A stretch of DNA of 64,000 nt from Patescibacteria group bacterium. GTDB lineage: Bacteria; Patescibacteriota; JACPGU01. The position numbers were made by a program, and so were the translations under genes. Shown here piece after piece: positions 18,528-57,576 of this stretch. The stretch is taken from NCBI GenBank assembly GCA_041675145.1, contig JBAYUK010000002.1, forward strand, positions 88,530-152,529, in the 5' to 3' direction. How positions within the stretch are numbered: position 1 is the first letter of the stretch; every line of letters begins with the position of its first letter. The notes under the pieces are model-generated. The model was not told the origin of the DNA. It saw only the letters and a list, made by a program, of their open reading frames with translations, and did not search any database.

Positions 18528-18592
18528 ACAATAAAAGGAAAATAGTAATTTATCCTCCTGTTATGCTAGCAAAAAATGCTATATTTTGCAAT

Positions 18593-34595: not shown

Positions 34596-34726
34596 TTGCT
34601 ACTTTTTATTAGGAGTATTTTGTAGTATACAGTTTTTTTGCTATATAAAGCTATAAAAAAGTGATTGAAAAAAACCTATTTTCATGTTATAATAATTTCA
34701 AATATTACAAAAGTAAACACAAAGAT

Positions 34727-35434
34727 ATGACACAAAAAGGTACATTCTTGCAAAGGATCAGTGTGCGTAAAGGAGCACTCGCTCTCGCTTCTTTTCTCGT
34801 TGTTGCTAGTGCGGGTAGTTATGCTCTTGCGAGTAATACTTCAAACTTTCAGCTCACAATTAACCCAGGTACTCTCTCAATTGATATCGTAAATGGATCG
34901 TATGTAACTGTTGCTAGTCCAACTGTAGTATTTGGTGCAGTAACAACTGGATTCTCTTGTCAGACACCAGGAGCGACAGGTACTTTTGGTACAGCAACTC
35001 AAAAGCTATACATCGCTAACCCGGATGCGGCAGATAATGGTTGGACAGCATCACTTGCTGCCTCTGACCCAACAGACGAGTGGTCAGATACGGTGCCTTT
35101 AGACTTTAATGACCCGACTGGAACTCCATCAGGGTGTGCCGACGGAGCTGACGCAGACTCAAGTAAAGGAAAGATGACAGTAAATGCATCTGGTGCAACT
35201 CTCGCTAACGGTCAATGTACTGGGTGTAACACTTCAAATGTAACGCTTGGTAGCTCGGCTTCTTTCAGTGAAGGTGTTCTTGATAGCGTAACGGTTGCTT
35301 CAGCAGCTGCTGCAGCGAACGATATTGCTGACTACACGGTTCAAGGAGTGGCAGTGTCACAGACTATTCCAAGTTCTCAGCCAGCATCATCGGGATATGA
35401 CATTAACATGGTTCTTTCAATTGTTGCTCTCTAG
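34727..35434 (+). CDS. Secreted Ser/Thr/Gly/Ala-rich surface protein; paralogous to the C-terminal domain of the 1248-aa protein at 36846..40592.
   Basis: Start moved to ATG 34727 (MTQKG…) ahead of a Sec signal peptide (…ASFLVVASAGSYALA|SN). Conserved blocks are shared with the giant protein: 'LDFNDPTG…ADGADADSSKGKMTVN…G…C…LGSSASFSEGV' versus 'FDFNDPTANAIDGADADSKGGQMTIN…GC…LGSSSSFSQGV'. The C-terminal endings are similar ('…SIVAL' / '…ITITAL'). Followed by a strong terminator. Confidence 0.6.
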   Translation: MTQKGTFLQRISVRKGALALASFLVVASAGSYALASNTSNFQLTINPGTLSIDIVNGSYVTVASPTVVFGAVTTGFSCQTPGATGTFGTATQKLYIANPDAADNGWTASLAASDPTDEWSDTVPLDFNDPTGTPSGCADGADADSSKGKMTVNASGATLANGQCTGCNTSNVTLGSSASFSEGVLDSVTVASAAAAANDIADYTVQGVAVSQTIPSSQPASSGYDINMVLSIVAL

Positions 35435-35456
35435 AAAAAGTTGAAAAAAATATAGA

Positions 35457-35487
35457 AAATCCAGCCTTGCGAGGCTGGATTTTTTTA
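35457..35487 (+). terminator. Rho-independent terminator (AATCCAGCC-TTGCGA-GGCTGGATT plus TTTTTT).
   Basis: 9-bp GC-rich inverted repeat plus T6. Confidence 0.75.
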
Positions 35488-35522
35488 TGCTAGACTGAGG
35501 GCTAATACATACGAAGTAGTTT

Positions 35523-36776
35523 ATGAAATATACCAACATACAATCTCTCTTTTTTATTGCCTTAATCCCGGTACTTATAGGGGCATTTATTCCTACAGCT
35601 AAGGCTGTTGAGTATGGTGGTGTTGGAGGAAGGCCAGCATATCCACGGTCTGACAATCCTCGTACAGACTCTATTTTCGTACATAACGCGAATCCAGGAG
35701 ATGTTATTAAAGAAGGTGTCACAGTTATTAATAACACCAACGAGTCAAAAACACTTTCTGTATACGGTGGAGACTATATCCCATCTTCAGGTGGCGGGTT
35801 TGCATGTCGTCAGTTTACTGAACAACAGACAGAGGTCGGTTCATGGATTGAACTAAGTAAAAAGGAGGTAACACTCGAGCCGAAAACAAATGAGCTTATT
35901 CCTTTTACGATTAGTGTTCCCAAAAACGCAAGTGTAGGTGAGAATGACGGATGTATCTTAATTGAGGAAAAGAAAATGAGCGCAGTGGATGACGGTGAAA
36001 AAGCAGGAGTTAGTCTTCGCTTTAGAACTGGACTGCGCGTAGTAGTTACTATCCCAGGAGACATTGTAAAAAAACTTGATATATTAAACTTCAACTCAAC
36101 TAAGAAAGGTGACAAAAATATATTGCTTTCAGCTCAGGTAAAAAATAGCGGAAATGTTTCTATTGATACCGATGTAAAGATAGTTACTCGTGATATGTTT
36201 AACCGCGAGATAGCAGATCATGGTGGTGAGTTCTCTATTCTAAGAGGGCAGACTAGTGATTATAACTTTGAACTCAAGCAGCCGTTTTGGGGAGGACTTT
36301 TCTCGGCAAACCTTTCTGCGGCGTATGACCCAAGTATCACAGTTGAGTTAGGAAAGAAGTCAGATGAAAAAAGAGTAACGCTTACTGCTAAGAAGATCGT
36401 GTTCTTTTCTCCTCCAACACCACTTGCGGCCGTTATTGAGATAGTGGTTCTATTGTTGGTACTATTTCTTCTTACTAGGGTTATTAAGAAAAAGAAACAA
36501 GACCGATGGATAGCTAATAAATGGGTGCGATATACGGTACAAAAAGGAGATACAATAAACAGCTTAGCTTCAAAACACTCTGTTTCTTGGAAGTTGATAG
36601 TAAGAGCAAACAATATGCAGCCACCGTTTGTTATGGAACAGGGGAACACTATCCGACTTCCATTGATCAAAAAGAATAGGGATGTGCTCGCTGTGCTACC
36701 AGTAAAAAAACCGACAGCTTCTAAAGTAAAAAAAGTACCAAGTAAGACAAAGTTAAAGACTAAAACAAAGAGGTAG
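35523..36776 (+). CDS. Signal-peptide protein with a ~290 aa extracytoplasmic beta-rich domain, a single C-terminal TM helix, then a LysM domain and a Lys-rich tail.
   Basis: Signal peptide 'LFFIALIPVLIGAFIPTAKA|VEYGG'. TM segment 'LAAVIEIVVLLLVLFLLT' followed by 'RVIKKKKQ'. LysM motif 'YTVQKGDTINSLASKHSVSWKLIVRANNM'. The architecture resembles the membrane-anchored partner proteins of Firmicute WxL-type surface loci, but I cannot confirm homology. Confidence 0.55.
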   Translation: MKYTNIQSLFFIALIPVLIGAFIPTAKAVEYGGVGGRPAYPRSDNPRTDSIFVHNANPGDVIKEGVTVINNTNESKTLSVYGGDYIPSSGGGFACRQFTEQQTEVGSWIELSKKEVTLEPKTNELIPFTISVPKNASVGENDGCILIEEKKMSAVDDGEKAGVSLRFRTGLRVVVTIPGDIVKKLDILNFNSTKKGDKNILLSAQVKNSGNVSIDTDVKIVTRDMFNREIADHGGEFSILRGQTSDYNFELKQPFWGGLFSANLSAAYDPSITVELGKKSDEKRVTLTAKKIVFFSPPTPLAAVIEIVVLLLVLFLLTRVIKKKKQDRWIANKWVRYTVQKGDTINSLASKHSVSWKLIVRANNMQPPFVMEQGNTIRLPLIKKNRDVLAVLPVKKPTASKVKKVPSKTKLKTKTKR

Positions 36777-36784
36777 AAATTCAT

Positions 36785-36816
36785 AAGAAAGTGGGGTAAA
36801 ACCCACTTTCTTTGTT
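36785..36816 (+). terminator. Probable terminator hairpin (AAGAAAGTGGG-loop-CCCACTTTCTT) after the LysM protein gene.
   Basis: 11-bp inverted repeat; the downstream T-tract is weak (TTTGTT). Confidence 0.45.
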
Positions 36817-36845
36817 CCTGGTATTTGTTATAATTTTATATATAA

Positions 36846-39800
36846 ATGTATGAGATAAACAAACAAAGAAAAAGCATTTTTTCTATCGTAAAGCTACCTT
36901 CGTTGGTTGCTATTCTTTTCGTTTTAGAGATAGTACTTTCTTTCGTAGCGCAGTTCCCAAATCAACCGATTGCAGGTAGTGCACAAGCAGTTAGTTTAAC
37001 CCAGGGAGATGGGCTTGCAGTGTATGGGGTTTCTGCCAATACAACACCTCAAGTAAGAACATATACTGGAGCTACGAATGTATTTAGCTCTGCCTCTAGT
37101 ACGGTTAGCGGTAGTGCGCCACTATCTCTAGTCAACAAAACTTCGCCTACAAAACAGGAGGCAATCATTGGATATATAAACTCGAGTGGAACTTTACAAA
37201 TAGCGTGCTATAACGGAACAAGCTACACAAACGAATGGAGTGTGAGTGTAGGTGGCACTGGTACAGATCGTCGCTTTGATATTGCGTACGAAACTAGTAC
37301 TGGCGACGTTATGGTGTTGTACTCTACCAACACTGCGACTACTAACGAGTTGGCCTATCGAACTAAGTTAGGCTCTACAGGCTGCGGTGCAGCAAACTGG
37401 GCAAGTGCAACTAATCTTGACCCGGTAAGAACCTCTGGAGTTGTGCAGTGGGTGAAGATGGCATGGGATCGTCGTTCATCTTCTAATCTCATCACTGCTA
37501 TCTGGGCAGACGCCAACTCTGACCTTTCTGCGCAAGTGTGGTCTGGAACAGCTTGGAGTAACGAGCCATCAGCAGCGCTTGCAACAACGCTTGATGTTAT
37601 CTCTGCTGCCCAGGATGTGGAAGATTTTGATGTGGAGTACGAATCTTTATCTGGTGATGTAAAGGTAGTCTGGGGAGTTGCGCAGGGAAATAATAATCCT
37701 GGAGTACGAGAGTCTAATTGTACTGGAGGAATATCTAGTTGTACCTGGAGTGCAGTTGCTACACCAGCGACATTTAATGATGATGCAACTAACCTTGATC
37801 TTTCTGCTAACCCCCTAACTGACGAAATGGTATTTGCTTCAATTGGACAAGATCAACATGACCTACAGATTGGGTACTGGTCGGGTTCTGCCTGGACAAA
37901 TGATGCAAACGTAGATACTTCCTCAGATACACCACTTACAAAAACAAAAAAAGTCGCTACAGGGTGGGTGAAGACAGGGAGCACTACCAGAAGTATTATT
38001 GTTTATGCAGATGGTAACGGTACGACTACGAACCTTAGCTACTATACTGGGAATTCTGGGACATTTAGTGCGGGAACTGACTTTACTATGAGTCCAGTGC
38101 CTGGAGCTTTCCGTTCATTTGATATACAACAAGATCCGTATAGTTCGGATAGGATTTTGCTAACATATAGCGACGCAAACAACGATCTATTTGCTAAAAG
38201 ACTAGTTATAACAGCTGGCCCAACGTTTACATGGACTAACGCTGATTCTAGTTCGGCACTTGAAACTAGCCTCGGGCAAGCAGCGCCATTGGATTTTTCG
38301 TACGCTTTTTGGCGCTATGCTCCAAGGTTTAATGAAGCAGGATACCGTTGGTTTGAAAACAATAACTCAACTAACGCAGGAGTTGCTACAGCAAATCCTA
38401 GTGCAAGTGATGAGTTTGTTCGTGACATGAAAGCTGACTCTCAATATCTATACGCAGTAGGGCACGATACAAGCCCAGGTAATAACCAGTGGAGAATTGA
38501 AAAGAGATATATTACAAACTATGACTACGACACGAGTTTTGGAACAAGTGGAGTGATGGCCAACAATCCTTCATCAGGAGATGATCGAGCTCTAGAATTA
38601 GATATAGATACAACTTCCATGTATATTGCTGGGTATGATGTTACTCCAGGTAACGCTAGATGGAGAATTGAAAAAAGAAGTAAGTCTACTGGGTTTACTG
38701 ATTTTGGTTTTGGAACGCTCGGCGTTATTACGACCGATGTGAGTGGTGGCGATGACTATGCTCGCAGTATTACTGCTGACTCTAGTTATATCTACATTGC
38801 AGGAGTTGATGCAACGAGCTCAAATAATAGATGGCGGATAGAAAAAAGAAATAAGTCAAATGGGACTCTTGTCTCTGGCTTTGGTACTTCAGGTGTTGTA
38901 ACGAATAATCCAAGTGCAGGAGACGACCAGCCGTTGTCTATTGTGGTTAGTGGTAGCTATATCTATACGGCAGGTTATGATTCGACTCCTGGTAATAAGC
39001 AAATTCGTATAGAAAAAAGACTAACTAGTACTGGTGCTCTTGATACTGGGTTTGGTGTGAGTGGTGTCGTAACGAGTAACCCAGGTAGTGGAGATGATGT
39101 AATAAATAAAGTAAAAACTGATGGCACATATCTGTATGTTGCAGGATACGATTCTTCTGTTGGGGCAGCTAACCTCCAGTGGCGTTTTGAAAAAAGAAAT
39201 GTTTCAGATGGGTCTCTAGTTGGAGCATTCGGTTCATCAGGAGTTGCTACCAGTAACCCTACTAGTTCAAATGATGAGCTGTATGACTTTGACTATGATG
39301 GTACATATATATACCTCGGAGGTTCTGATGCAATCTCTGGTGGTGACTATGAATGGCGAATAGAAAAGCGATCCATATCTACAGGTAGTTTGGATGGTTC
39401 TTTTGGAATATCTGGAGTTATAACTAGTAACCCAGGTTCAGGATTAGATCGAATTCGTGCTGTAAAACTTTCTTCAACTAGTATTCTGACCGGTGGAGCT
39501 GGAACTAATTCTACAAATCTTGAATGGAGATTTGAAAAAAGATCTTCTACTGGTGGAGCACTTGCAAAGGTGTTGGCTGCACAGAATACTGCTGCAACTT
39601 TAACTACTATTAATGATACTTTTCGTTTACGACAACTCATAACAGTGACTGCAAATAATTTCCAGGCAGATCAGAGTTTTAAGTTGCAGTTTGCAACTAA
39701 GTCAGGAACTTGTGATACTGCTTTTTCTGGTGAAACATATACAGATATTACTGCTTCAACAGCCATTGCGTATTATAATAATGTAACTCCTACTGATGGT

Positions 39801-40592
39801 ACTGCAACAGTGAGTAATCCTCAGGATCCGACTACAGGAAATACAATAAATTACCAAACCTACGAAGAAGCAAACAACTTCACTAACTCTCAATCAACAA
39901 TTCCGGTAAACCAGGATGGTCTTTGGGATTTTTCATTATATGATAAGACGGCTACAGTAAATACTTCATACTGTTTTCGTGTAGTGAAGAGTGATGGTGT
40001 ACTGCTGGATACTTATACTCAGGTTCCGGAAATAATTACTGCTCCAGGAGCACTAACAACTGATATAGTGGATACAGGTGGCAGTTCAGTATCGAGCCCA
40101 CTTGTTACTATGAGCACAGCAATGAGCGCTAAGAACTTCCAAACTACTACTGGGACGCTTGGTACCTCTTCAGAAAAAGTCAGGGTCAACAACACAACTT
40201 CCAATCCTAAGTGGCAGATTACAATAGCTGCATCTGGAGGAGTTACTTCTCTTTGGAATGGAACAGGTAACACTTTTGATTTTAATGACCCAACAGCTAA
40301 TGCAATAGACGGAGCAGATGCTGACTCGAAAGGTGGCCAGATGACAATTAACCCTGCAGGGGGTAGTATTGCTCCTAAGTCTGGGTGTACAAATACAGGA
40401 CTAAGCTTGGGAAGTTCATCTAGTTTTTCACAAGGAGTAACAGATGCTATTTCACTCATGTCGGCAGGTGCTAGTGCGGGCGTGAACTGTTTCTGGGATT
40501 TACTCAATGTTGCCATTTCTCAGACAGTTCCCTCATTTCAGCCTTCGGATACATATTCAAGAGCTATGACTATAACAATAACTGCACTCTAA
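36846..40592 (+). CDS. Giant secreted surface protein (1248 aa) in three parts: N-terminal signal peptide and Trp-rich region; about seven tandem ~60-aa beta-propeller-type repeats ending in 'WRIEKR'; and a C-terminal domain paralogous to the 34727..35434 protein.
   Basis: Tandem protein repeats of the form 'G(T/V)SGV(V/I)T(S/N)NP(S/G)SGDD…YIY(I/T)AGYD(S/V)TPGN..WRIEKR..S.G.L…FG' run from aa ~515 to ~905. The repeats are in frame and diverged at the DNA level. The signal peptide is 'LPSLVAILFVLEIVLSFVAQ'. Confidence 0.7.
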   Translation: MYEINKQRKSIFSIVKLPSLVAILFVLEIVLSFVAQFPNQPIAGSAQAVSLTQGDGLAVYGVSANTTPQVRTYTGATNVFSSASSTVSGSAPLSLVNKTSPTKQEAIIGYINSSGTLQIACYNGTSYTNEWSVSVGGTGTDRRFDIAYETSTGDVMVLYSTNTATTNELAYRTKLGSTGCGAANWASATNLDPVRTSGVVQWVKMAWDRRSSSNLITAIWADANSDLSAQVWSGTAWSNEPSAALATTLDVISAAQDVEDFDVEYESLSGDVKVVWGVAQGNNNPGVRESNCTGGISSCTWSAVATPATFNDDATNLDLSANPLTDEMVFASIGQDQHDLQIGYWSGSAWTNDANVDTSSDTPLTKTKKVATGWVKTGSTTRSIIVYADGNGTTTNLSYYTGNSGTFSAGTDFTMSPVPGAFRSFDIQQDPYSSDRILLTYSDANNDLFAKRLVITAGPTFTWTNADSSSALETSLGQAAPLDFSYAFWRYAPRFNEAGYRWFENNNSTNAGVATANPSASDEFVRDMKADSQYLYAVGHDTSPGNNQWRIEKRYITNYDYDTSFGTSGVMANNPSSGDDRALELDIDTTSMYIAGYDVTPGNARWRIEKRSKSTGFTDFGFGTLGVITTDVSGGDDYARSITADSSYIYIAGVDATSSNNRWRIEKRNKSNGTLVSGFGTSGVVTNNPSAGDDQPLSIVVSGSYIYTAGYDSTPGNKQIRIEKRLTSTGALDTGFGVSGVVTSNPGSGDDVINKVKTDGTYLYVAGYDSSVGAANLQWRFEKRNVSDGSLVGAFGSSGVATSNPTSSNDELYDFDYDGTYIYLGGSDAISGGDYEWRIEKRSISTGSLDGSFGISGVITSNPGSGLDRIRAVKLSSTSILTGGAGTNSTNLEWRFEKRSSTGGALAKVLAAQNTAATLTTINDTFRLRQLITVTANNFQADQSFKLQFATKSGTCDTAFSGETYTDITASTAIAYYNNVTPTDGTATVSNPQDPTTGNTINYQTYEEANNFTNSQSTIPVNQDGLWDFSLYDKTATVNTSYCFRVVKSDGVLLDTYTQVPEIITAPGALTTDIVDTGGSSVSSPLVTMSTAMSAKNFQTTTGTLGTSSEKVRVNNTTSNPKWQITIAASGGVTSLWNGTGNTFDFNDPTANAIDGADADSKGGQMTINPAGGSIAPKSGCTNTGLSLGSSSSFSQGVTDAISLMSAGASAGVNCFWDLLNVAISQTVPSFQPSDTYSRAMTITITAL

Positions 40593-41500
40593 TGAATAAT
40601 AAATACCACATGTTTATTGTTATTCTGCTTCTTGCTGTAGCGCCAGTTATTGTTCGAGCTGGGTCAAATGCATTGTTTCAGCTAGAGATTCAAAACAGTG
40701 CAACACCAACGCTGAGCACACCAAGTAGCCAAGGAGGGGGAAGTAGTATAGGAAACCAAGTAAATAACCTACCTCTTGGTTCGTACAGTTTCAGTGGAGT
40801 TAGTTTTAGTGGAGCGAAGATAGAAATAATGAAAGATGGGGAAGCGTACACCCAGGTCGTGGCTGATGCGGGTGGAAACTTTTCTGGATTAATTAGCGGA
40901 TTAAATCAAGGTACATATACTTTTGGATTCATTGTGTATGATAAGAATAACCATCATAGTGATCTTGTTACGCAAGGTATTTCAATTACAGGTTCCGGGT
41001 TAGTGACTGGCTCAATAGTTGAATTACCGCCTACCGTTACAATTATTGAAGATGAAGGTAAAAAATTAAACCTCACTGGATATGGTAAGAAAGATTCTAA
41101 TATAGATATTGTAATTAGTAGTAATAGTAAAGAAATAAGTAAAATATCAGCACAAAGCTTAAACGATGGGTACTATATCGTAGATATTGGAAAATTAGAG
41201 TTTGAGGAAGATTATTATGATGTTTTTGTGTATGAGTCTCGGGCAGGAGCTGTAGCGAAGACAAAGATATCTTTTTCTGTTAGCAATAAAAGAGTTATTC
41301 TAAAAGAAGGAGAGTGTTTAGTAAGAGCAGACTTGAACTGCGACGGAAGAGTTAATCTAATAGATTTCTCAATTGCATCGTATTGGTATAATCGAACACT
41401 TACTAATGATTTTTTGGATATAGAAAAAGGTAGGTTAAATGGAGACGGACAAGTAAATCTTATAGATTTTAGTATTATGGCTTACTTCTGGACAGGATGA
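40592..41500 (+). CDS. Secreted protein with a C-terminal dockerin-like module (two calcium-binding repeats).
   Basis: Signal peptide 'MFIVILLLAVAPVIVRA'. The C-terminus 'DLNCDGRVNLIDFSIASYWYN…RLNGDGQVNLIDFSIMAYFW' shows the duplicated D-x-N-x-D-G-x-V-N-x-x-D F-loop pattern of type I dockerins. Confidence 0.65.
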   Translation: MNNKYHMFIVILLLAVAPVIVRAGSNALFQLEIQNSATPTLSTPSSQGGGSSIGNQVNNLPLGSYSFSGVSFSGAKIEIMKDGEAYTQVVADAGGNFSGLISGLNQGTYTFGFIVYDKNNHHSDLVTQGISITGSGLVTGSIVELPPTVTIIEDEGKKLNLTGYGKKDSNIDIVISSNSKEISKISAQSLNDGYYIVDIGKLEFEEDYYDVFVYESRAGAVAKTKISFSVSNKRVILKEGECLVRADLNCDGRVNLIDFSIASYWYNRTLTNDFLDIEKGRLNGDGQVNLIDFSIMAYFWTG

Positions 41501-42366
41501 AGATATATTGGATAATTATAATTTTTGTTTTCGCATTATATATCCCATCGCAAGTTCGGGCTGTTGCTGGTGATCCCCAGCTTTTTTTTACTAAAAAAGG
41601 CACCATACAGAACGTTAAAAATGGAGAGAGATTTTCAGTTGACCTTGTACTGTCTTCGAGTACTCCTATTAATGTAGTTAACGGTATTGTTGATATATCT
41701 GGACCGGCTGAAGTTGAGCAGATCATTACTGGTAGCTCAATTATTTCTCAGTGGATTGAGCCAGTTCAGATTAGGAAAGATATAAGCACCATTCCTTTTT
41801 CTGGTGTAGTTTTCGGAGGATACGCTGGGGACATAGGGCAGGTATTCACTCTTGTTTTAAAATCTAAGAATCCTGGAGAAATACTTGTCACAGTAAAAAA
41901 TACTCAAGGCTATATTAATGATGGAAATGGAACTTATATAGCACTTAAATCAGCTCCTCTAAAAATTAATGTAACGAGCGAAGACTCACATATTGTATCT
42001 CCTGTCATACAAGACACTACGCCTCCAGAGGAATTTAGTCCAGAAGTGTACCGTGACTCAGTGTTGACTGAGAATAAATGGCTCGTTTCATTTATTACTC
42101 AAGATAAAGGATCTGGTATTGAGAGATACATGGTAAAAGAAGGATCAGGTGATTTTGTGGATGCAGCCAGTCCATATGTCCTAAAGAGTGATCCAATAAA
42201 CGAAGAGATAACAGTAAGAGCAATAGATAGGTTAGGAAATATGCGTGATGCGGTCGTTACTCCCCTTGATAGTAAGGAACAAAATCCGTATATATTCCTA
42301 CTGTTTGTTGCTGGCTTATTACTGGTATCATTAACTTGGCGTAATAAGACTAAAATAAAGAAGTAG
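41497..42366 (+). CDS. Membrane-anchored cohesin-like protein (signal peptide plus ~140-aa beta-sandwich plus C-terminal TM anchor).
   Basis: The block 'VNGIVDISGPAEVEQIITGSSIISQWIEP…GQVFTLVLKSKNPGEILVTV' matches the cohesin pattern (…Yd.s.Le.v.v..G.i……G.l..i.Fk.k..G). The C-terminal hydrophobic anchor is 'YIFLLFVAGLLLVSLTW' followed by 'RNKTKIKK'. Confidence 0.55.
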   Translation: MKIYWIIIIFVFALYIPSQVRAVAGDPQLFFTKKGTIQNVKNGERFSVDLVLSSSTPINVVNGIVDISGPAEVEQIITGSSIISQWIEPVQIRKDISTIPFSGVVFGGYAGDIGQVFTLVLKSKNPGEILVTVKNTQGYINDGNGTYIALKSAPLKINVTSEDSHIVSPVIQDTTPPEEFSPEVYRDSVLTENKWLVSFITQDKGSGIERYMVKEGSGDFVDAASPYVLKSDPINEEITVRAIDRLGNMRDAVVTPLDSKEQNPYIFLLFVAGLLLVSLTWRNKTKIKK

Positions 42367-42370
42367 AGTT

Positions 42371-43249
42371 ATGCAGATTATAGTATATAAAACATTTCTT
42401 TCTTTCTGGGCTCTACTGCTCGTGATTTTTTCACTTGTAAGTCCAGTATTCGCAGTAAGCTCACAAGCGAGCATATTTATTGTTGGCCCAGCACAGGTAG
42501 AACAAGGACAGGTCTTTTCTTCATCTGTATTTGTAAGTTCTGCTGTCTCAATGAATGCAGTCAGTGCTACTATTTCCTATGATTCTTCGATGCTTGACTT
42601 AGTTCAGGTAGTAAAAGCCCCATCAATTATAAGTCTATGGGTACAGGAACCTGAGCTAGTACCGGGGTCTGTAAGGTTCTCTGCTACTATTTTAAACCCT
42701 GGGTATCAGGGGGATGGCGGGCAACTGGTTACTCTCCAGTTTAAACCAAAGAATACTGGAATATCCACCGTTAGTGTTACTAGTGGTATGATCTTAGCAA
42801 ACGACGGTTTAGGTACAGATATTACTGGACCACTAGGTTTATATCGTTTCGAGGTGAACCCATTAGCTATTAAGAAGCCTATATTAGAACCAGAGCAAAA
42901 GATTCCCGCAGAGAATGGTCTACCTTCGGGTGGTGAGTCAGATGCATTATCTGGGCCAGGGGTAGATATTATACAAAAGGCTATACAGCAACTAGATTTA
43001 AACAATGTTCCAAGTGTAGATATCCAGAAGTTAACACAAGCGCTGCCAGTCGAATATATCTTTCAAGATCAAAGAGTTAAAACCACACTCGCTGTGGTAG
43101 AACAAAAAGTTAAGCAGTACCAGGTAGCGACAGTAACATCTGTAGCGGTGAATACCGTTTCGATTAGTTTTTCTGTTGTCTACTGGGTTAGACTACTGAG
43201 ATCTCGTAGGCTTCTAGCTAGTCTGGCTAAAAAGATCGCAAATCTTTAA
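42371..43249 (+). CDS. Second membrane-anchored cohesin-like protein, paralogous to the preceding gene.
   Basis: 'VSATISYDSSMLDLVQVVKAPSIISLWVQEP…GQLVTLQFKPKNTGISTVSV' aligns block-for-block with the previous protein and with the cohesin consensus. It has a signal peptide and a C-terminal hydrophobic segment 'VAVNTVSISFSVVYWV'. Confidence 0.55.
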   Translation: MQIIVYKTFLSFWALLLVIFSLVSPVFAVSSQASIFIVGPAQVEQGQVFSSSVFVSSAVSMNAVSATISYDSSMLDLVQVVKAPSIISLWVQEPELVPGSVRFSATILNPGYQGDGGQLVTLQFKPKNTGISTVSVTSGMILANDGLGTDITGPLGLYRFEVNPLAIKKPILEPEQKIPAENGLPSGGESDALSGPGVDIIQKAIQQLDLNNVPSVDIQKLTQALPVEYIFQDQRVKTTLAVVEQKVKQYQVATVTSVAVNTVSISFSVVYWVRLLRSRRLLASLAKKIANL

Positions 43250-48844: not shown

Positions 48845-50170
48845 ATGAAACTTATAAATATATCAGTGCAGAAACTAGAAAAGATAAGCGCTTACTTTTT
48901 TTTAACGTTTATATTTTTTCTTCCTTTCATGAAAAGAAAGGAATTTTACCTACCTGATTCTTTTTGGAATGGAAATTTTATAGAGTATGTAACTCCGTCT
49001 ATATATGTATCGGAGCTATTTCTATTGGTTGCGCTTGGTATTTTCTTACTTCTTTTCATTTTATTTAAAGAAAAATATATCTTTAAAAGTATTTTAACTA
49101 GAAATTTAACTAGGTTGTTTATACTTTTTCAGGTTTTTTCTCTAGTCTCTTTATTTTTTTCTCAAACGCAAATTGTTAGCTTATACTACATTCTTGTATC
49201 TTGGGTACTCTTTATTACGATTTTGTACTTAACTTACTTTTTAAGAAGTATGAGCAACATAAGAAGTCTTACGAATGTCTTCCTGGTAGCTATGACGATC
49301 CAGGGTGTTATCGCTATGCTGCAGTTTATAACAGGCCATTCTATTGGGCTGCATGTTATAGGAGAACAATACCTATCTTCAGAAACCATAGGAGTAGCTA
49401 AGGTGGTTTTTGGCTCCGTAAAGCATATAAGGCCTTACGGTACTTTTTCTCATCCAAATATACTAGGTTACTTTACTGCCATAGCAATATACCTTGGCCT
49501 AAACGACTATATATCTCTAGAAGGTAACAGAAGGACTTTACGAATAATTACGCTGTTTATCCTTGCTCTTACGCTTCTTTTGACCTTCTCGCGTATATCT
49601 TGGATTGTAGCAACGATATTCGTTGTAGGTATTTACCTAAAAAAGTTTCATAAGACACTTCACATAAGAAACTTTTTTAAAGAAAATACTAAACCGCTTA
49701 CTTATCTTATTGTATTTAGTACTTTACTCGTTGGAGCAGTTATGTGGTATCGAGTTAACCCACTTAACCCACTTACCTGGGAGTCTTTAGTCGTTAGGTA
49801 TCAGCTTTATATTCATTCGTTAAAAATGTTGTTATTGTATCCGCAAGGAGTAGGAATTGGAAATTACTCAATTATTCTAACTAAAACATACTCATCTCTC
49901 CCATTCTGGATGTTGCAACCAGTTCATAATACGTTTTTGCTAGCAATAAACGAGCTAGGGTTGGGACTTGTAGTTCTTATGCTTGCCGCGTTGCCTTACG
50001 CTTGGAAGAAGCTACAGAAGACGACATATGAGAATAAGCTACTCATTACAGGTCTACTTATATTTATGATATTTGATCATGCATTTTGGGATATTAGGCA
50101 AGCGCAATACTTATTTGTATTAGTCATTGGTCTGTGCATCTCCCGAATAGAAATAGGTCGTAAAACATGA
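48845..50170 (+). CDS. Polytopic membrane protein of the O-antigen ligase/polymerase (Wzy_C/WaaL-like) family.
   Basis: More than 10 predicted TM helices. 'LTFSRISWIVATIFVVG' resembles the Wzy_C 'SRG…W' loop region. First gene of the glycan cluster. Confidence 0.55.
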   Translation: MKLINISVQKLEKISAYFFLTFIFFLPFMKRKEFYLPDSFWNGNFIEYVTPSIYVSELFLLVALGIFLLLFILFKEKYIFKSILTRNLTRLFILFQVFSLVSLFFSQTQIVSLYYILVSWVLFITILYLTYFLRSMSNIRSLTNVFLVAMTIQGVIAMLQFITGHSIGLHVIGEQYLSSETIGVAKVVFGSVKHIRPYGTFSHPNILGYFTAIAIYLGLNDYISLEGNRRTLRIITLFILALTLLLTFSRISWIVATIFVVGIYLKKFHKTLHIRNFFKENTKPLTYLIVFSTLLVGAVMWYRVNPLNPLTWESLVVRYQLYIHSLKMLLLYPQGVGIGNYSIILTKTYSSLPFWMLQPVHNTFLLAINELGLGLVVLMLAALPYAWKKLQKTTYENKLLITGLLIFMIFDHAFWDIRQAQYLFVLVIGLCISRIEIGRKT

Positions 50171-50183
50171 TATAATAGCTCAT

Positions 50184-51605
50184 ATGGCTGGTTATACAAA
50201 AAAGATTGCCTACAACACTCTCATTCAGTTTGTGGGCAAGGCAATCACTACAACTATCTCTATAGTTACTCTAGCGACCATTGCTCGATATCTGGGTGTT
50301 AGTCTATATGGAGAATACGCTACTGCCTTCGCCTTTATAGGCTTTTTTTCTATTTTGGCTGATATGGGCTTCTATACTATTGCAGTTAAGGAGATGGCAG
50401 CACGGCCAGATGAAAAAGACTACATAATAGGCAATATCCTGCTGATGCGAATAGCGCTCGCTCTTGCCTTTGTGGTAATTGCTCCTATTGTTGGCTGGTT
50501 GATTCCTGTGTATTCTCTTGCAGTGAAACAGGGAATACTGATTATTTGTTTGTCTACATTCTTTGTTCTCATAAACCAAATCTTTGTTAGTGTTTTTCAG
50601 TACTTTTTAAGGATGGATAAGCTGGTGTTAGCAGACTCTATCTCTCGCGCAGTTATGCTAGTAGTTGTACTAATTGCAGTCTACCTAAAACTACCTCTAC
50701 CATTCTTCTTTTTAGCGCACCTTTTGGCAAATATCGCTCTATGTTTACTGTCGTATCTGTTTGCGCGTAAGTTTGTTACGGTCAGACTCAAGTACGATTC
50801 AAAATACTGGAAGTATATAGCGAAAGAAGCATCAACTCTTGGCCTCGTTCTTGTTCTAGGTTTCGTGTACTTTAAGGTAGATTCTCTAATGCTGTCTCTA
50901 CTTGCAGATAGTAGGGCAGTGGGTATATATAGTGCATCGTATAAGGTTCTGGAGATTATGATAACAATACCAGCAATGTTTATGGGGTCAGTTTTTCCTC
51001 TAATAGTTAGGTATATAAAAGATAAAGACGAGAGACTTCAGGGTAGTTTTCAAAAAAGTTTTGATTTTATGAGCTTGCTTGCCCTACCTATGTTACTTTC
51101 TCTTGTTGTGTTAGCAAAGCCTATTATGCTACTCCTGGCTGGAGGAGAATTTACTGATTCAATTCTCGTACTCCAGTACTTATCTTTTGCTATCTTTATA
51201 ATATTTTATGGCACTATCTTTGGAAACTTTGTAGTGGCTGCAAACCTTCAGAAAAAGATGATATACGTATATCTTCTTGGTATGGTATTTAATACTATTA
51301 CTAATGCGTATTTAATATCTCGTTTCTCTTACTACGGTGCTGCTCTCACGACAGTTGTAACTGAGTTACTCGTTGCTTCTCTTACTTTTATAATAATTAA
51401 GAGACACTTTGGTTTTGTTCCTAACTTAAGGATCTTTTTTAAGGCCCTCACCGCTTCAGTCGTAATGGCAGCGTTGCTGTACGTTACTCGTGGCGCTATT
51501 CACGTCCTTTTGCTTGCACCAATTGGCCTGTTTCTCTATATAGGGGTGTTATATGTCCTAAAGGCTATTAACCGAGATACGTTAAAAACTATTTTTAAAA
51601 GTTAA
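50184..51605 (+). CDS. wzx: Wzx-type oligosaccharide flippase (polysaccharide biosynthesis protein, MOP superfamily).
   Basis: 'KKIAYNTLIQFVGKAITTTISIVTLATIARYLGVSLYGEY' is the typical Wzx N-terminus. About 12 TM helices. Confidence 0.7.
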   Translation: MAGYTKKIAYNTLIQFVGKAITTTISIVTLATIARYLGVSLYGEYATAFAFIGFFSILADMGFYTIAVKEMAARPDEKDYIIGNILLMRIALALAFVVIAPIVGWLIPVYSLAVKQGILIICLSTFFVLINQIFVSVFQYFLRMDKLVLADSISRAVMLVVVLIAVYLKLPLPFFFLAHLLANIALCLLSYLFARKFVTVRLKYDSKYWKYIAKEASTLGLVLVLGFVYFKVDSLMLSLLADSRAVGIYSASYKVLEIMITIPAMFMGSVFPLIVRYIKDKDERLQGSFQKSFDFMSLLALPMLLSLVVLAKPIMLLLAGGEFTDSILVLQYLSFAIFIIFYGTIFGNFVVAANLQKKMIYVYLLGMVFNTITNAYLISRFSYYGAALTTVVTELLVASLTFIIIKRHFGFVPNLRIFFKALTASVVMAALLYVTRGAIHVLLLAPIGLFLYIGVLYVLKAINRDTLKTIFKS

Positions 51606-51609
51606 GTAT

Positions 51610-52746
51610 ATGCGAGTATTGGTTTTTAAATCTTCTTGGGTGTTTGGAGGAGGAGAGATATATAATCTCCAGCTTTTTAATATCTTAAAAGAACTACATA
51701 TTGAAACTGTTCTCTTTTCTTACAATGATGACTTCATTAAGAAGTCCGAAGGTACTGGTGTTACAACAAAAAAAGTGTTCTGGGGTAGTGAGCCAAGCTC
51801 TCTTAGGTACCTAGCACAGTTCTTTATATTAATGCCGTACAACTACCTGGTATTTTTTATACTGTTGTTTAAATATAGAGGGAGTGGTAACGTAGTCTTT
51901 TTCCAAGGTATCCATGACAAAATAATTGGAACAGGTATAGCACGCATTCTTGGTTATAGGGTTTATTGGTTGGAGCACCTTTCTTTGATGCCTTGGATTG
52001 TAAGGTGGGACAAGAGAGTTATTAAATATCTGTACAATAAGAGCTCAAAAAAAGTAGACGGTGTTATTGCTATATCTCAGTCGGTAAAGAAAGAGCTTAT
52101 TTCTTACCTAGCTATTAACAAAGAAAAAGTAAGTGTTCTTTACTACGGCATAAACCTTAATCTTCCAAATCGTAACCCTTCTGAAAAAGTTGAGGAGTTC
52201 TTAAAAAATAATACAGGTACAGTTATCGGGTATGTTGGTCGTCTTCATAACGAAAAGGGACTATCCATACTAATACAAGCCTTTAATGAAGTACAAAAAG
52301 ACTTACCATCCAAGCTTATTCTCGTTGGAGAGGGAGAAGATCGTCTGAAGTTAGAAGAGTTGGTGGAGGAGATGGGAATAACTGATAAAGTTTTATTTAC
52401 TGGCTTTCAGGAGAATGTTTATTCTTGTATCGAAAAGGTGGATGTTTTTGTTTTACCCTCATTAGTACGAGAATCTCTAGGGATAGTATTACTTGAGGCA
52501 ATGTCGTTGAAAAAGATATGTGTAGCAAGTCGCATTGGGGGAATTCCTGAGATTATACAGAACGGTATAAACGGGTATTTGGTTGGCCCTGGAGATGTAT
52601 CAGAGCTATCAAGGGTACTATATAGTATTCATAGTTTGTCTAAAGAAAATACGCATGCAATACAGGAAAATGCATATGCTACTATCATAGAAAAATTTAG
52701 TTACCAAGAGATGAAGAAATTAGTTTCGAAGTTGCTACACATATGA
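51610..52746 (+). CDS. Glycosyltransferase family 4 (GT-B, RfaB-like).
   Basis: 'GRLHNEKG' and the 'SLGIVLLEAMS' E-x7-E motif are present. Confidence 0.75.
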   Translation: MRVLVFKSSWVFGGGEIYNLQLFNILKELHIETVLFSYNDDFIKKSEGTGVTTKKVFWGSEPSSLRYLAQFFILMPYNYLVFFILLFKYRGSGNVVFFQGIHDKIIGTGIARILGYRVYWLEHLSLMPWIVRWDKRVIKYLYNKSSKKVDGVIAISQSVKKELISYLAINKEKVSVLYYGINLNLPNRNPSEKVEEFLKNNTGTVIGYVGRLHNEKGLSILIQAFNEVQKDLPSKLILVGEGEDRLKLEELVEEMGITDKVLFTGFQENVYSCIEKVDVFVLPSLVRESLGIVLLEAMSLKKICVASRIGGIPEIIQNGINGYLVGPGDVSELSRVLYSIHSLSKENTHAIQENAYATIIEKFSYQEMKKLVSKLLHI

Positions 52747-53846
52747 AAATAGGAATAGATACAAGACTGCCATTAAAAGAGAAAACGGGTATGGGCTATT
52801 TAGCTCAGAATTTAGTGAGTGGCATGGTAGACATCTCTAAAAAAAATAGTGATGAGGTTACCCTTATTGGAGACTCAATAGGTAACTATAATAATGTTAA
52901 GTACATTAAGCTTTCAGGAATAGTGAAGAGAGGCCTAAACTTTATATGGAGATACCTGCCAGTACCAGTTAACTTGCTTGGAAAGCCATTTGACGCTTTT
53001 CTGTTCCCTAACTTTGTAGATTTCCCGGTAAGAGCAAAAAGAAAGGTAGTTATTATTGGTGACTTATCTTTTTTGAAATATCCGGATTTTATTGAGAAGA
53101 AAAATAGAAATTATCTTTTGAAGTACGTACCGAAAGCAATACAGCGTTCTGATCATATACTTGCGATTACGCAAGTAGTAAAAGATGAGATAGTGGAGTA
53201 TTATGGCGTTCCAGAGGCTAAGATAAGTGTTATGCACTTGGCTCCTAATAAAGATATTTCTTTTACAGGTAATAGTATTGAGCTGAACAGAGTAAGAGAT
53301 AAATACGGTATACCAGATAACTACTTTTTATCAGTTGGTACAATCGAGCCAAGAAAGAACCACGCTGTATTATTGGAGGCAATGGCAAAAATGAAAAGTA
53401 ATACTGACTCACGGTATGTATTAGTAATAGCAGGAAAAAAAGATTCTGATTACGAAAGGTTACAGTTACTTGCAAGTAAGTTACAAATAGAAGACAGAGT
53501 TATTTTTACGGGTTATATAGAAGAGGGAGACTTTTCTGCGCTATATAGTGGGTCTAAGATATGTATCTTCTCTTCACTGTATGAGGGTTTTGGCATACCA
53601 GTGATTGAGGCTATGAGCTGCAGAGTTCCAGTCATACTCTCAAACATACCTACCTTCCACGAAATAGCGGGAGAAAACGCTTTGTATTTTGACCCAGAAA
53701 ATGCAGAACAGCTAGTGGAGAAGATACGATTAATTCTAGAGAACCCAGATTTGAGACAGAACTTAGTGGATTCGGCTTCATCTTCTGTTAAAAGATTTAC
53801 CTGGGAAAGATCGGCACAGATAGCATACAGAGCTCTTTTTAAATAG
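52743..53846 (+). CDS. Glycosyltransferase family 4.
   Basis: 'GTIEPRKNH…EGFGIPVIEAMSC' is present. 4-nt overlap with the upstream gene. Confidence 0.75.
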   Translation: MKIGIDTRLPLKEKTGMGYLAQNLVSGMVDISKKNSDEVTLIGDSIGNYNNVKYIKLSGIVKRGLNFIWRYLPVPVNLLGKPFDAFLFPNFVDFPVRAKRKVVIIGDLSFLKYPDFIEKKNRNYLLKYVPKAIQRSDHILAITQVVKDEIVEYYGVPEAKISVMHLAPNKDISFTGNSIELNRVRDKYGIPDNYFLSVGTIEPRKNHAVLLEAMAKMKSNTDSRYVLVIAGKKDSDYERLQLLASKLQIEDRVIFTGYIEEGDFSALYSGSKICIFSSLYEGFGIPVIEAMSCRVPVILSNIPTFHEIAGENALYFDPENAEQLVEKIRLILENPDLRQNLVDSASSSVKRFTWERSAQIAYRALFK

Positions 53847-53870
53847 GGTAGGTTACTGTAGAATACATAT

Positions 53871-55031
53871 ATGCTTATAGGATTTGACTGCCGCATAATT
53901 AGAGATAAAAACCCAGCCGGAATCTCCTGGGTTGTTTTAGAGTCGTTGCGTAAGATACTCTCTCTCGATCGTAAAAATGAATACCTCTTAATATTCGACA
54001 GTATCGAGATAAAGGACTATGTGCTGCACTACTTACGGCACATTAAAAAACAGTATCGGGTTATGATTGTGCCTTTCAGTTTACTTGGTGTTAAAAATTT
54101 AATACACCTGCCTGCTGTGCTTGAATCAAAGAACATAGATGTCTACTACTTGCCGTACTACTTTACTACGCCTTTCCATAAGAAAAGCTATAAAGTCGTC
54201 TTAACGGTTTTTGACCTAATTCATTTCTTCTATCCCAAGCTTAAGATGGGATTAGGAAGAAAGCTTTTTCACTTATTTAAACTTGCACCGTACCTTGTAC
54301 TAAGAAGAGCAGATAAGATTATTACTATCTCTATAAACACTTCCAGAGATTTAATACATATGTTTCGTGTTCCTTCTAGAAAAATTAAGATGATATATGT
54401 AGGTGTCTCTGAAAGATTTAGGAAAGTAGACATGGTACTTGCTAAGAAGCTTATGAGGGAGAAGTACTCTATTCAAAAAAACTATATCCTTTACGTAGGA
54501 AGAAACGAACCACATAAGAATATAAAAGCTTTAATAGGTGCATACGCTTTACTGCCACAGGCAGTGAGGGATAGTCATACGCTCGTATTAGCAGGAAAAG
54601 AAGAGGAGCGATATGCACAGTCAATTCACGACTTTGTAAACAAGCTACACATAACTGAGAATGTCGTATTTACTGGGTATGTAGATGAATCCGACTTACC
54701 GTATGTATATAGTGGAGCCAGTGTTTTTGTCTTCCCATCTTTTTATGAAGGCTTTGGCATGCCAGTTCTTGAGGCCATGGCATGTGAGGTCCCAGTTATT
54801 TGTTCAGATAGTTCTTGTTTGCCTGAGGCAGGTGGGAATGCTGCTTTATACTTCCACCCAGAAGATGTCCGTGATTTAACAAGTAAGCTATATGAAGTGT
54901 TGAGCAATTCAATGAAGAGAGAGGATATGATTAAGAAAGGAAAAGTACAGGTGAGAAAATTCACGTGGTTTAACTCTATTTCGCAACTCATAGAGTGCTT
55001 AGAGCAAGTAGTACACGGTGATATGAAATGA
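53871..55031 (+). CDS. Glycosyltransferase family 4.
   Basis: 'GRNEPHKNI…EGFGMPVLEAMAC' is present. Confidence 0.75.
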   Translation: MLIGFDCRIIRDKNPAGISWVVLESLRKILSLDRKNEYLLIFDSIEIKDYVLHYLRHIKKQYRVMIVPFSLLGVKNLIHLPAVLESKNIDVYYLPYYFTTPFHKKSYKVVLTVFDLIHFFYPKLKMGLGRKLFHLFKLAPYLVLRRADKIITISINTSRDLIHMFRVPSRKIKMIYVGVSERFRKVDMVLAKKLMREKYSIQKNYILYVGRNEPHKNIKALIGAYALLPQAVRDSHTLVLAGKEEERYAQSIHDFVNKLHITENVVFTGYVDESDLPYVYSGASVFVFPSFYEGFGMPVLEAMACEVPVICSDSSCLPEAGGNAALYFHPEDVRDLTSKLYEVLSNSMKREDMIKKGKVQVRKFTWFNSISQLIECLEQVVHGDMK

Positions 55032-56341: not shown

Positions 56342-57576
56342 TACAGTTGATCCCATTTATTATTACACTTCTTCTACCAAGCTATCTCATACGATTTAGT
56401 TTTTATGGTGTACCTACGACGTTACTCGAAATAATAGTATATGGTGGTTTGTGTGTAACACTTATTCATGCTGTGCATAGCAAGCAGTTTGTGCAAGCAG
56501 TAAAAAAAGTGTATTCAAATGTGTTTTTTAAATTAGCCATAATTCTATTGCTGGTTTCTGCTATAACTGTTTTCGTATCTCCTGATCTTTTATCTGCAGC
56601 TGGTATCTGGAAGGCTTATTTTTTCGACTCTCTTATATATATCTTCTTGTATATATATTGGGCGAGAAACAAGAAGGATATAGATATGGTGCTTGCATCC
56701 TTTAGTATTAGTGCAGGCTTACTCGTATTAGGCTCGTTACTATTACCCCGTTACGGCTTGTCGGTCGACGGAAGGTTGCAGAGCATATTCTCTTCACCAA
56801 ATTATCTAGCCTTATATATTACACCCGCTCTTCCTGTGTGTTGGTACCTTGTAACTCAAAAGGATTCACTTTTTATTAAGAGACTTTTTCTTGGGCTTAC
56901 TTTTCTTGTTATTCTAGCTGGAGTAATACTGACATACTCACGGGGAGCATGGATGGCATTACTGGGGGCTGGTATGGTTAGTTTATATTTTATTTATATC
57001 AGCAGAACTACTGGCAGGAAAAATAGAGTAGTAAAAGCAAGTTCGTATCATAAGAAGGTACTTCTCGTTATTACAGGATTGGTAGTAAGTATTACCACGA
57101 TAGGTTTGCTGTACTCAAGCTTATTTAAGTTTAGAGGCGTACAGTCTGATACTATACGAATTGCGATATGGCAACAGAGTATTAGCTACATAAAAGAAAC
57201 CCCACTACTCGGGGTTGGTCTTGGTAACTTTCAAAACTACTTTAGTGAACACACGAAAACATTTATAAACTTTCCTGAGTACATTACTCCTCATGCTCTT
57301 ACTCCGCACAATATGGTACTGAACTTATGGCTTCAAACTGGAATTATTGGGCTTACTGCTTTTCTAGTAGTAGTTGTACTGTTCTATACTAGAGTTAAAA
57401 ATGGAATACTCCAGGAAGAAGTACATACGAGAGGTTTGTATGTGGCACTCGGGTTGTCGATGGCTACTATACTGTTTCAGGGTCTAGTAGATAGTGCTAT
57501 ATGGAAAAATGACCTTATACTTGTATTCTGGATGGTGGTGATATCTATCTCGGTGAGTAGTACTAGGGATGTATAG
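56338..57576 (+). CDS. O-antigen ligase family (WaaL/Wzy_C) polytopic membrane protein.
   Basis: 'LTYSRGAWMALLGAGMVSL' is a classic Wzy_C motif. About 10 TM helices. Confidence 0.65.
   Translation: MIQLIPFIITLLLPSYLIRFSFYGVPTTLLEIIVYGGLCVTLIHAVHSKQFVQAVKKVYSNVFFKLAIILLLVSAITVFVSPDLLSAAGIWKAYFFDSLIYIFLYIYWARNKKDIDMVLASFSISAGLLVLGSLLLPRYGLSVDGRLQSIFSSPNYLALYITPALPVCWYLVTQKDSLFIKRLFLGLTFLVILAGVILTYSRGAWMALLGAGMVSLYFIYISRTTGRKNRVVKASSYHKKVLLVITGLVVSITTIGLLYSSLFKFRGVQSDTIRIAIWQQSISYIKETPLLGVGLGNFQNYFSEHTKTFINFPEYITPHALTPHNMVLNLWLQTGIIGLTAFLVVVVLFYTRVKNGILQEEVHTRGLYVALGLSMATILFQGLVDSAIWKNDLILVFWMVVISISVSSTRDV

Follow-up and report, generated by a model that had tools for sequence, protein, structure and literature searches.

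A widespread cohesin-dockerin gene trio in candidate phyla radiation bacteria and its predicted role in surface anchoring

Cohesin-dockerin recognition is known beyond the cellulosome. Non-cellulosomal pairs have been documented (Peer et al. 2009, as cited in PMC9012536), archaeal pairs and genomes of anaerobic methanotrophic archaea (ANME) with cohesins and dockerins are discussed in PMC9012536, and the amylosome of R. bromii represents a further system (PMC4611034). For candidate phyla radiation bacteria (CPR, or Patescibacteria), a surface filament has been described in the Pam pilus of Ca. Mycosynbacter amalyticus, which consists of donor-strand-exchange pilins, PapD-like chaperones with a transmembrane helix at the C-terminus, and the terminator PamR, a transmembrane-anchored tandem-FnIII protein; it is reported mainly in Saccharimonadia and Microgenomatia, adjoining ATP synthase genes (bioRxiv 10.64898/2026.03.03.709456). 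CPR bacteria, which are ultra-small and have tiny genomes, make up a large share of bacterial diversity and are mostly uncultured, and because the cultivated members live attached to other cells, the building of the cell surface is central to their biology. Here, we describe a three-gene locus in a 64-kb stretch of DNA (hereafter, the window) from the metagenome-assembled genome of a Patescibacteria group bacterium (GenBank assembly GCA_041675145.1, contig JBAYUK010000002.1, positions 88,530 to 152,529). Its products, termed proteins A, B, and C, carry one dockerin (A) and two cohesin domains (B and C). We consider it reasonably likely that they make up a cohesin-dockerin module in the envelope of CPR cells that is self-contained and anchored in the membrane. 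All positions below are those of the window.

Domain architecture of proteins A, B, and C

The three open reading frames (ORFs) were confirmed at the following coordinates, all on one strand. In the NCBI records, A is named 'dockerin type I repeat-containing protein', C is named 'cohesin domain-containing protein', and B is a 'hypothetical protein'.

40592..41500, plus strand: protein A, ORF of 302 amino acids (aa)
41497..42366, plus strand: protein B, ORF of 289 aa
42371..43249, plus strand: protein C, ORF of 292 aa

Protein A opens with a signal peptide, followed by a disordered Ser/Thr/Gly/Gln-rich stretch (residues 16-58), two domains resembling immunoglobulin (Ig) or FnIII folds (63-132 and 137-230), and a C-terminal dockerin (240-302) with the following elements.

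41309..41497, plus strand: dockerin module, residues 240-302 of A, two loop-helix segments
41330-41365, plus strand: calcium loop 1, D247-L-N-C-D-G-R-V-N-L-I-D-F, loop residues 247-258 (D247..D258)
41432-41467, plus strand: calcium loop 2, R281-L-N-G-D-G-Q-V-N-L-I-D-F, loop residues 281-292 (R281..D292)

The Pfam model Dockerin_1 (PF00404) matched full-length A at 24.5 bits against a cutoff of 22.9 and the last 72 residues of A at 29.6 bits, and it matched 45 of 45 orthologous segments at E<=0.01. A profile built from these 45 segments aligned across both repeats of the solved dockerin 2y3n_B (E=6e-7) and also matched 5nrm_B, 1daq, and 2mte. The dockerin-like spacing proposed in an earlier note on this DNA was borne out by the interval between the loops, which at 34 residues matches that of 2y3n_B. 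When the 64 kb were searched with a relaxed loop pattern in each of the six frames, just two matches were returned, both of them the loops of A, and the loops are therefore not a chance match. In the AlphaFold model of A (mean predicted local distance difference test, pLDDT, of 76.6), the C-terminal module forms three helices (256-265, 272-281, and 290-300) at pLDDT 84-95, which agrees with the dockerin fold that the same note had placed at 41323..41497. A fold search with full-length A was dominated by tandem Ig/FnIII proteins, in which the small dockerin was invisible; a dockerin-only profile search was therefore used. Two of the dockerin helices are near-identical (VNL[IV]DFSI[AM]AY), and such internal symmetry is typical of dockerins. 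Furthermore, the dockerin is the best-conserved part of A, with a mean column identity of 63% as against 33-36% in the full-length family alignments of B and C, which fits a constrained interface.

The dockerin also has features of its own. Loop 1 ligands are fully canonical across 82 distinct A orthologs, and the canonical set of calcium ligands (Asp or Asn at positions 1, 3, 5, 9, and 12) is complete in this loop only: in loop 2 of the window protein, positions 3, 5, 9, and 12 are canonical and position 1 is Arg. Both of the 'D-x-N-x-D-G-x-V-N-L-I-D-F' segments that had been reported at the C-terminus of A are thus present, with the correction that the second begins with Arg and not Asp. This is the prevailing state in the family, where position 1 of loop 2 is basic in 63 of the 82 orthologs (Arg in 31, Lys in 26, His in 6) and Asp in five. 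A cysteine upstream of loop 1 is paired with a loop-1 cysteine at position 6 (43 orthologs) or position 4 (23 orthologs), never both, and the 13 orthologs without the upstream cysteine have neither loop-1 cysteine. Because these cysteines covary, Cys241 and Cys250 of A probably form a disulfide, which would fit an extracytoplasmic location of the protein. Most A-family proteins (for example, L001:8001-9059 and L003:8001-8939) carry an N-terminal Cys-rich DUF4215 module (PF13948) and then 7-10 glycines before the first Ig-like domain. The window protein has neither the DUF4215 module nor the poly-Gly run and bears its Ser/Thr/Gly/Gln-rich disordered stretch instead.

Protein B comprises a signal peptide, a cohesin at residues 28-163 (41578-41985), an FnIII-like domain at 183-254 (42043-42258), and a transmembrane helix at 264-288 (42286-42360). 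Protein C comprises a signal peptide, a cohesin at residues 38 to about 166 (42482-42868), a linker of about 85 aa, a transmembrane segment at 252-270 (43124-43180), and a basic tail. The Pfam model Cohesin (PF00963) matched C over residues 38-146 at 27.0 bits, above its cutoff of 24.1, and a precomputed PF00963 match is carried by one B homolog (P0160). The suggestion of the earlier note that B and C contain paralogous cohesin-like domains was confirmed at the level of sequence and profile and, for B, of predicted structure. The two proteins share 31% identity over 147 aa (BLASTP, E=2e-11), and their family profiles align with an hhalign probability of 100% (E=1.7e-45). The B-family profile also matches solved cohesins of Ruminococcus flavefaciens (5aoz, E=8e-5; 5m2o, E=3e-4). 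The AlphaFold model of B (mean pLDDT 89.9) is all-beta over residues 28-163; residues 183-254 form another beta domain, and residues 264-288 form a helix. When this model was compared with the PDB using Foldseek, ranks 1-32 were all cohesins, the best being 2w1n (E=1.6e-9). It superposes on 2xdh with a target-normalised TM-score (template modelling score) of 0.78 and a root mean square deviation of 2.9 A, and on 6kgd, 5n5p, 4dh2, and 3ul4 with TM-scores of 0.71-0.74. A nine-strand beta-sandwich superposable on solved cohesins is therefore seen in the B model; for C, the fold is drawn from its homology to B.

In both proteins, a signal peptide stands at the N-terminus, and a hydrophobic segment followed by a basic tail stands at the C-terminus. 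The hydropathy peaks fall at residues 263-281 in B and 252-270 in C, in keeping with the C-terminal membrane anchors that had been proposed for them. The predicted topology of B and C is thus that of type I membrane proteins whose cohesin lies outside the cell. An additional Ig-like domain is present in most C-family members and absent from the window protein. Two further kinds of architecture were encountered around the B family. Proteins P0178, P0184, P0191, and others are giants of 3,400-5,300 aa with 13-38 tandem copies of B's FnIII/OmpL47-like domain, and proteins of 530-970 aa with two or three stretches matching the B profile look like B-B or B-C fusions, or like read-through of adjoining genes.

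Conserved gene order and operon context

The A family gave more than 767 matches in a 90%-identity protein collection, and among species-representative genomes, taken as one per GTDB species, at least 555 encode a relative of A. Among the matches listed, the named lineages are all CPR: Paceibacterota, Magasanik-, Uhr-, Wolfe-, Campbell-, Komeili-, Falkow-, and Veblenbacteria, and Minisyncoccia. For B, a search of 1.84 billion proteins with the family profile gave, at E<=1e-30, 3,778 proteins that each represent a 50%-identity cluster. Gene order was examined in 83 fetched loci, with the count for B limited to the 78 loci that had enough downstream sequence. In 77 of these 78, the 3.3 kb downstream of A include a B-type gene on its strand; in the sole exception, that gene lies about 4 kb away. 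For C, 63 of 65 loci have a gene of this type, and the copy number of C is one in 59 loci, two in 13, and four in one. A is the sole dockerin-bearing ORF within +-10 kb in 84 of 84 loci. Orthologs share 27-44% identity, yet the order A, B, C is kept. Conserved gene adjacency is the usual genomic sign of joint function, and its maintenance at such divergence is taken here as a sign that the three proteins work together.

Several variations on this order were observed. Four loci (L030, L033, L044, and L061) have the order A-C-B-C; where two C paralogs are present (13 loci), the shorter usually precedes the longer; and at L027:14751-20369, B lies about 4 kb downstream of A, with four C-type genes after it. 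Typical CPR gene content is also shown by several loci whose records bear the names Gammaproteobacteria, Planctomycetia, Ca. Methylomirabilis, or Aenigmatarchaeota (L007, L019, L022, L070, L073, and others), and these loci are probably mislabelled contigs or mis-binned contigs of metagenome-assembled genomes, not true occurrences outside CPR. The module also reaches a cultivated lineage. A genome whose B protein is identical to MCSN_0760 of Ca. Microsyncoccus archaeolyticus has a full five-gene cluster (pilin-like, WxLIP-like, A, B, and C). Ca. Microsyncoccus archaeolyticus belongs to CPR and was enriched together with methanogens in co-culture, and the paper describing it makes no mention of these genes (PMC10936435). 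An essential 'dockerin' gene of Southlakia epibionticum, SEML1_0315 (Wang et al. 2023, PMC10633639), was considered as a trio ortholog and rejected: its product is a stand-alone protein of 927 aa encoded between a hydrolase gene and a tRNA gene, without cohesin neighbours.

In the window, the trio forms the 3' end of a six-gene same-strand block (about 34665-43249), the upstream features of which are as follows.

34665..34693, plus strand: promoter-like site (TTGAAA, 17-nt spacer, TATAAT, extended TG), directly 3' of tRNA-Ser
34661..35434, plus strand: small secreted protein, 257 aa as called, with a domain of about 200-250 aa in common with the C-terminus of the 1248-aa protein
35456..35483, no strand assigned: hairpin, a perfect 12-bp palindrome with 12 pairs around a 4-nt loop, lying between runs of A and T
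35523..36776, plus strand: WxLIP-like protein; after the signal peptide, it has a WxLIP_PGBD-like Ig domain, a transmembrane helix at 303-321, and a C-terminal LysM
36846..40592, plus strand: large surface protein of 1248 aa that begins with a signal or anchor, has about seven propeller-like repeats, and carries at its C-terminus the domain it has in common with ORF 34661

The promoter-like site agrees with the consensus at 11 of 12 positions, better than any other site in the region, and transcription of the block probably starts there. It falls inside the mechanically called GTG start of ORF 34661, and because of this overlap the true start of that ORF is probably the ATG at 34727 (MTQKGTF...), which would give a product of about 235 aa. 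This product is a candidate pilin-like subunit. The hairpin sits between this first gene and the second gene of the block and is a possible partial terminator or attenuator, which would raise the expression ratio of the first gene. The 35523..36776 product scored 23.0 bits with Pfam WxLIP_PGBD (cutoff 27.3) and 35.8 bits with LysM; it may serve the upstream-family proteins as a membrane-anchored chaperone or partner. Its signal peptide looks cleavable, and the transmembrane helix is followed by a Lys-rich stretch and then by LysM (337-380), which places this domain in the cytoplasm by the positive-inside rule. As LysM is a peptidoglycan-binding domain, this arrangement is a topology puzzle, and the L066 and L038 orthologs share the layout of a transmembrane helix followed by LysM. 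For the repeats of the 1248-aa protein, the profile scan gave a weak delta-60 repeat match.

The stop codon of the 1248-aa ORF overlaps the start codon of A (TAATG), the stop of A overlaps the start of B (ATGA), and B and C are separated by 4 nt. The trio is probably co-transcribed and translationally coupled with the upstream genes for large propeller-repeat proteins. The 'simple surface scaffold' envisaged in the earlier note is thus too narrow a description, as the trio is not isolated, forms the end of a longer surface-protein operon, and is itself widespread in CPR. The flanking genes are housekeeping genes (upstream, FtsK, RecA, RecX, pyruvate kinase, and tRNA-Ser; downstream, peroxiredoxin, DnaG, and RpoD).

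The genes preceding A in related loci were also compared. An initial figure of 65 of 83 loci with the pilin-like family upstream, obtained by single-linkage BLAST clustering, was withdrawn, having been inflated by chaining through long repetitive proteins; seeded iterative searches with hidden Markov models place the family upstream of A in 17 of 82 loci. Two layouts recur. In the first, to which the window belongs, large and small proteins sharing the pilin-like domain are followed by a WxLIP-like transmembrane protein encoded directly before A; a WxLIP-like gene has this position in 28-29 loci, and the L066 ortholog of the 35523 product passes the WxLIP_PGBD cutoff (30.9 bits against 27.3). 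The second features a giant (1,500-2,900 aa) that combines LVIVD/propeller repeats with a Pro/Glu-rich tail, accompanied by a 138-aa N-anchored protein encoded directly before A (31 loci). A large secreted protein therefore precedes the trio in either layout, and none of the large upstream proteins of related loci carries a cohesin or dockerin. Between the giant and the 138-aa protein of the second layout, a class A beta-lactamase-like gene often lies; the example at L015:7885-8889 matched PF13354 at 117 bits. Similar genes of about 330 aa occur in L008, L029, L042, L043, L072, L074, and L081, the Pfam scan having covered the L015 gene.

Two other features of the window were observed apart from the operon. 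Downstream of the trio, a surface-polysaccharide cluster (48845-57576) encodes a Polysacc_synt flippase, three GT4 glycosyltransferases, two Wzy_C/O-antigen-ligase-like proteins, and one protein without a Pfam match, and the fraction of guanine plus cytosine drops to 0.33-0.38 across it. On the minus strand at 17772-18528, two adjoining tRNA-Met(CAT) genes stand with a tRNA-Ile whose anticodon is TAT; bacterial genomes do not commonly encode a UAU anticodon for Ile.

Proposed mechanism and competing explanations

We propose that A, B, and C, each with a cleavable signal peptide, would be exported through the Sec pathway. B and C would be held in the cytoplasmic membrane by a single C-terminal helix, with the short basic tail inside the cell, and each would display one cohesin on a spacer, which is the FnIII-like domain in B and the flexible linker in C. 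A has no anchor of its own and would be retained at the cell by its dockerin, plugged into the cohesin of B, of C, or of both, in a contact that may depend on calcium. The Ig-like domains of A would then point outward, with a poly-Gly linker and a Cys-rich DUF4215 knob added in most species. Such a module would organise or anchor a surface adhesion or filament structure for attachment and would not scaffold enzymes. A role in a surface structure is suggested because the trio is apparently co-transcribed with genes for large surface proteins.

Several observations weigh against this explanation. B gives no Pfam cohesin match at E<=1 and thus fails the cutoff, so that of the two cohesin assignments that the earlier note proposed to judge by Pfam or HHpred thresholds, that of C stood in Pfam and that of B did not. 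The transmembrane segment of C in the window is only moderately hydrophobic (mean Kyte-Doolittle 1.66), although its orthologs show clear transmembrane segments. Loop 2 lacks the canonical Asp at position 1, which makes calcium binding there uncertain, and the window A has no recognisable functional head, the DUF4215 module of most orthologs being absent. Additionally, the link between the trio and the upstream genes is one of gene order, and the stoichiometry of one dockerin to two cohesin proteins, or up to five in some loci, is unexplained.

Given the pilin-like and WxLIP-like genes upstream of A, it is possible, though doubtful, that the trio serves as base or anchor for a filament that is built by donor-strand exchange and akin to the Pam pilus, a reading that would extend the envelope module proposed here rather than exclude it. 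A would then be a fibre-terminating adaptor comparable to PamR, with the membrane helix replaced by a dockerin and anchoring delegated to B and C. The Pam operon encodes Ig-fold pilins, PapD-like chaperones with a transmembrane helix at the C-terminus, and a tandem-FnIII transmembrane anchor. Correspondingly, the window and at least 10 fetched loci encode proteins with a shared pilin-like domain and a two-domain WxLIP-like transmembrane protein directly upstream of A, which is itself a tandem Ig/FnIII protein. The hairpin at 35456-35483 follows the first pilin-like gene, which would be the place of a partial terminator in a pilus operon whose first pilin gene is highly expressed. Among relatives of the small upstream protein, 5 of 12 match the NCBIfam model NF058581 (CPR_Pam_pilin_C), the best at E=1e-5, but all of them fall under its cutoff (best 25.7 bits against 55), and the window proteins themselves give no match to it. 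Some relatives match Pfam SCPU weakly, whereas PDB sequence searches with the pilin-like family came back empty. Moreover, with the pilin-like family upstream in just 17 of 82 loci, most of the others have the second layout; ATP synthase adjacency was seen in 2 of 83 loci and is absent from the window; the Pam preprint does not mention cohesin or dockerin; and RbmA, the structure used by its authors to describe PamR, is not among the top 50 fold matches of A. The resemblance is suggestive but weak, and a Pam-like filament base is an attractive extension rather than a finding.

If the sandwiches of B and C were structural or pilin-like, they would not be dockerin receptors at all, and the dockerin of A would bind a cohesin elsewhere, a host-cell glycan, or a cell-wall polymer. 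The low identity to classical cohesins in structural alignments (9-18%), together with the failure of B in Pfam, leaves room for this, and Pam pilins too are described with a nine-strand beta-sandwich as their N-terminal domain. Cohesin genes vary from two to five per single dockerin, and loop 2 of the dockerin is non-canonical. Nevertheless, a single dockerin gene adjoins cohesin genes in about 99% of loci, no further dockerin or cohesin ORF lies within +-10 kb, C passes the curated Pfam cohesin cutoff, and the first 32 fold matches of B are all dockerin-binding or related cohesins, including the non-cellulosomal one of A. fulgidus. We therefore regard this alternative as quite improbable. 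A minimal cellulosome- or amylosome-like scaffold, in which B and C recruit dockerin-bearing hydrolases encoded elsewhere and A is one client of several, is hardly credible: cohesin-dockerin systems classically assemble enzymes, and a class A beta-lactamase-like hydrolase gene stands in some related loci, yet that hydrolase carries no dockerin, Pfam scans of 28 window proteins revealed no glycoside hydrolase (as the earlier note had stated for the neighbourhood), the 64-kb window holds no dockerin or cohesin beyond those of the trio and none of the 84 loci a second dockerin, A has only Ig-like domains beside its dockerin, B and C have one cohesin each with no match to a carbohydrate-binding module, and the strict 1:1 occurrence of A with B in hundreds of species speaks for a dedicated pair.

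Returning to the membrane-anchored module, a broader form of the proposal can be stated tentatively, and we think it unlikely as it stands: that a large part of the CPR radiation uses a dedicated cohesin-dockerin plug and socket to anchor its major surface fibres or adhesins in the membrane or as the hub of their assembly. In this broader form, the anchored cargo may consist of the propeller-repeat giants and of Pam-like subunits of the donor-strand type, and the symmetric dockerin of A could bridge the cohesins of B and C into a heterotrimeric base. If true, this would represent a new way of anchoring surface filaments in a monoderm cell, without sortase or usher. Since the module occurs in cultivable parasites of methanogens, a role as a host-attachment determinant would be directly testable. 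More generally, it offers a concrete, testable protein-protein interaction in a setting where most envelope genes are 'hypothetical', and the dockerin variant, with its basic loop-2 residue and predicted disulfide staple, could inform the biophysics and engineering of dockerins.

Comparison with known systems

Non-cellulosomal cohesin-dockerin pairs are already known, as are the domain names that NCBI gives to A and C. Literature on cohesin or dockerin together with Patescibacteria, candidate phyla radiation, or Parcubacteria yielded no description of the three-gene module. Within the literature searched, the fixed trio, the transmembrane-anchored single-cohesin proteins, and the enzyme-free dockerin stalk appear to be undescribed, as do the near-universal synteny in CPR, the association with large surface proteins, and the family-specific dockerin features. 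The trio is among the more widespread CPR-specific envelope modules and lies beside genes for very large surface proteins. Cohesin-dockerin recognition is thus predicted to serve here as a housekeeping surface anchor, far from the degradation of plant biomass.

Two of the systems compared bear on the operon as a whole or on its upstream genes. WxL/Csc loci of Firmicutes are made up of secreted proteins that share a C-terminal domain and a transmembrane-anchored DUF916/WxLIP protein. The window operon resembles them in combining secreted proteins with a common C-terminal domain and a transmembrane-anchored DUF916/WxLIP-like protein (WxLIP_PGBD, PF06030). This likeness concerns the upstream genes alone and not the cohesin-dockerin trio, and the WxL domain model itself gave no match in 10 upstream-family proteins at E<=5. 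With the Pam pilus, the locus shares restriction to CPR, Sec signal peptides on all components, and a tandem FnIII component, and its candidate pilin-like subunits and membrane-anchored two-domain candidate chaperone may correspond to the Ig-fold pilins and chaperones of Pam. It differs in its cohesins and dockerin, which are not reported for Pam, in NF058581 matches that stay below the cutoff, in named records that belong to Paceibacterota/Parcubacteria-type lineages, and in the rarity of ATP synthase adjacency.

Clostridial cellulosomes provide the classical reference for the trio itself (OlpA/OlpC of C. thermocellum, 3ul4 and 4dh2; Cel48 of P. cellulosolvens, 2y3n_B). The type I-like dockerin with near-identical helix faces and the all-beta cohesin, with no helix in the B cohesin model, are common to both, and, as with clostridial anchoring scaffoldins, a secreted protein is predicted to be attached to the surface through an anchored cohesin. 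In contrast to the clostridial systems, the anchor is a transmembrane helix and not SLH or sortase, enzymes and carbohydrate-binding modules are lacking, and the identity to solved modules is only 9-18%. Non-cellulosomal pairs, represented by A. fulgidus (2xdh) and by GH84C of C. perfringens (2w1n), resemble the trio in having single cohesins and dockerins, no multi-cohesin scaffoldin, and no link to cellulose, and the cohesin and FN3 double module of GH84C mirrors the layout of cohesin and FnIII-like domain in B. Unlike these pairs, the CPR locus places its cohesins on dedicated type I membrane proteins and its dockerin on a protein without an enzyme domain, combines a basic position 1 in loop 2 with a cysteine staple in loop 1, and keeps all three genes together as a fixed trio in at least 555 CPR species.

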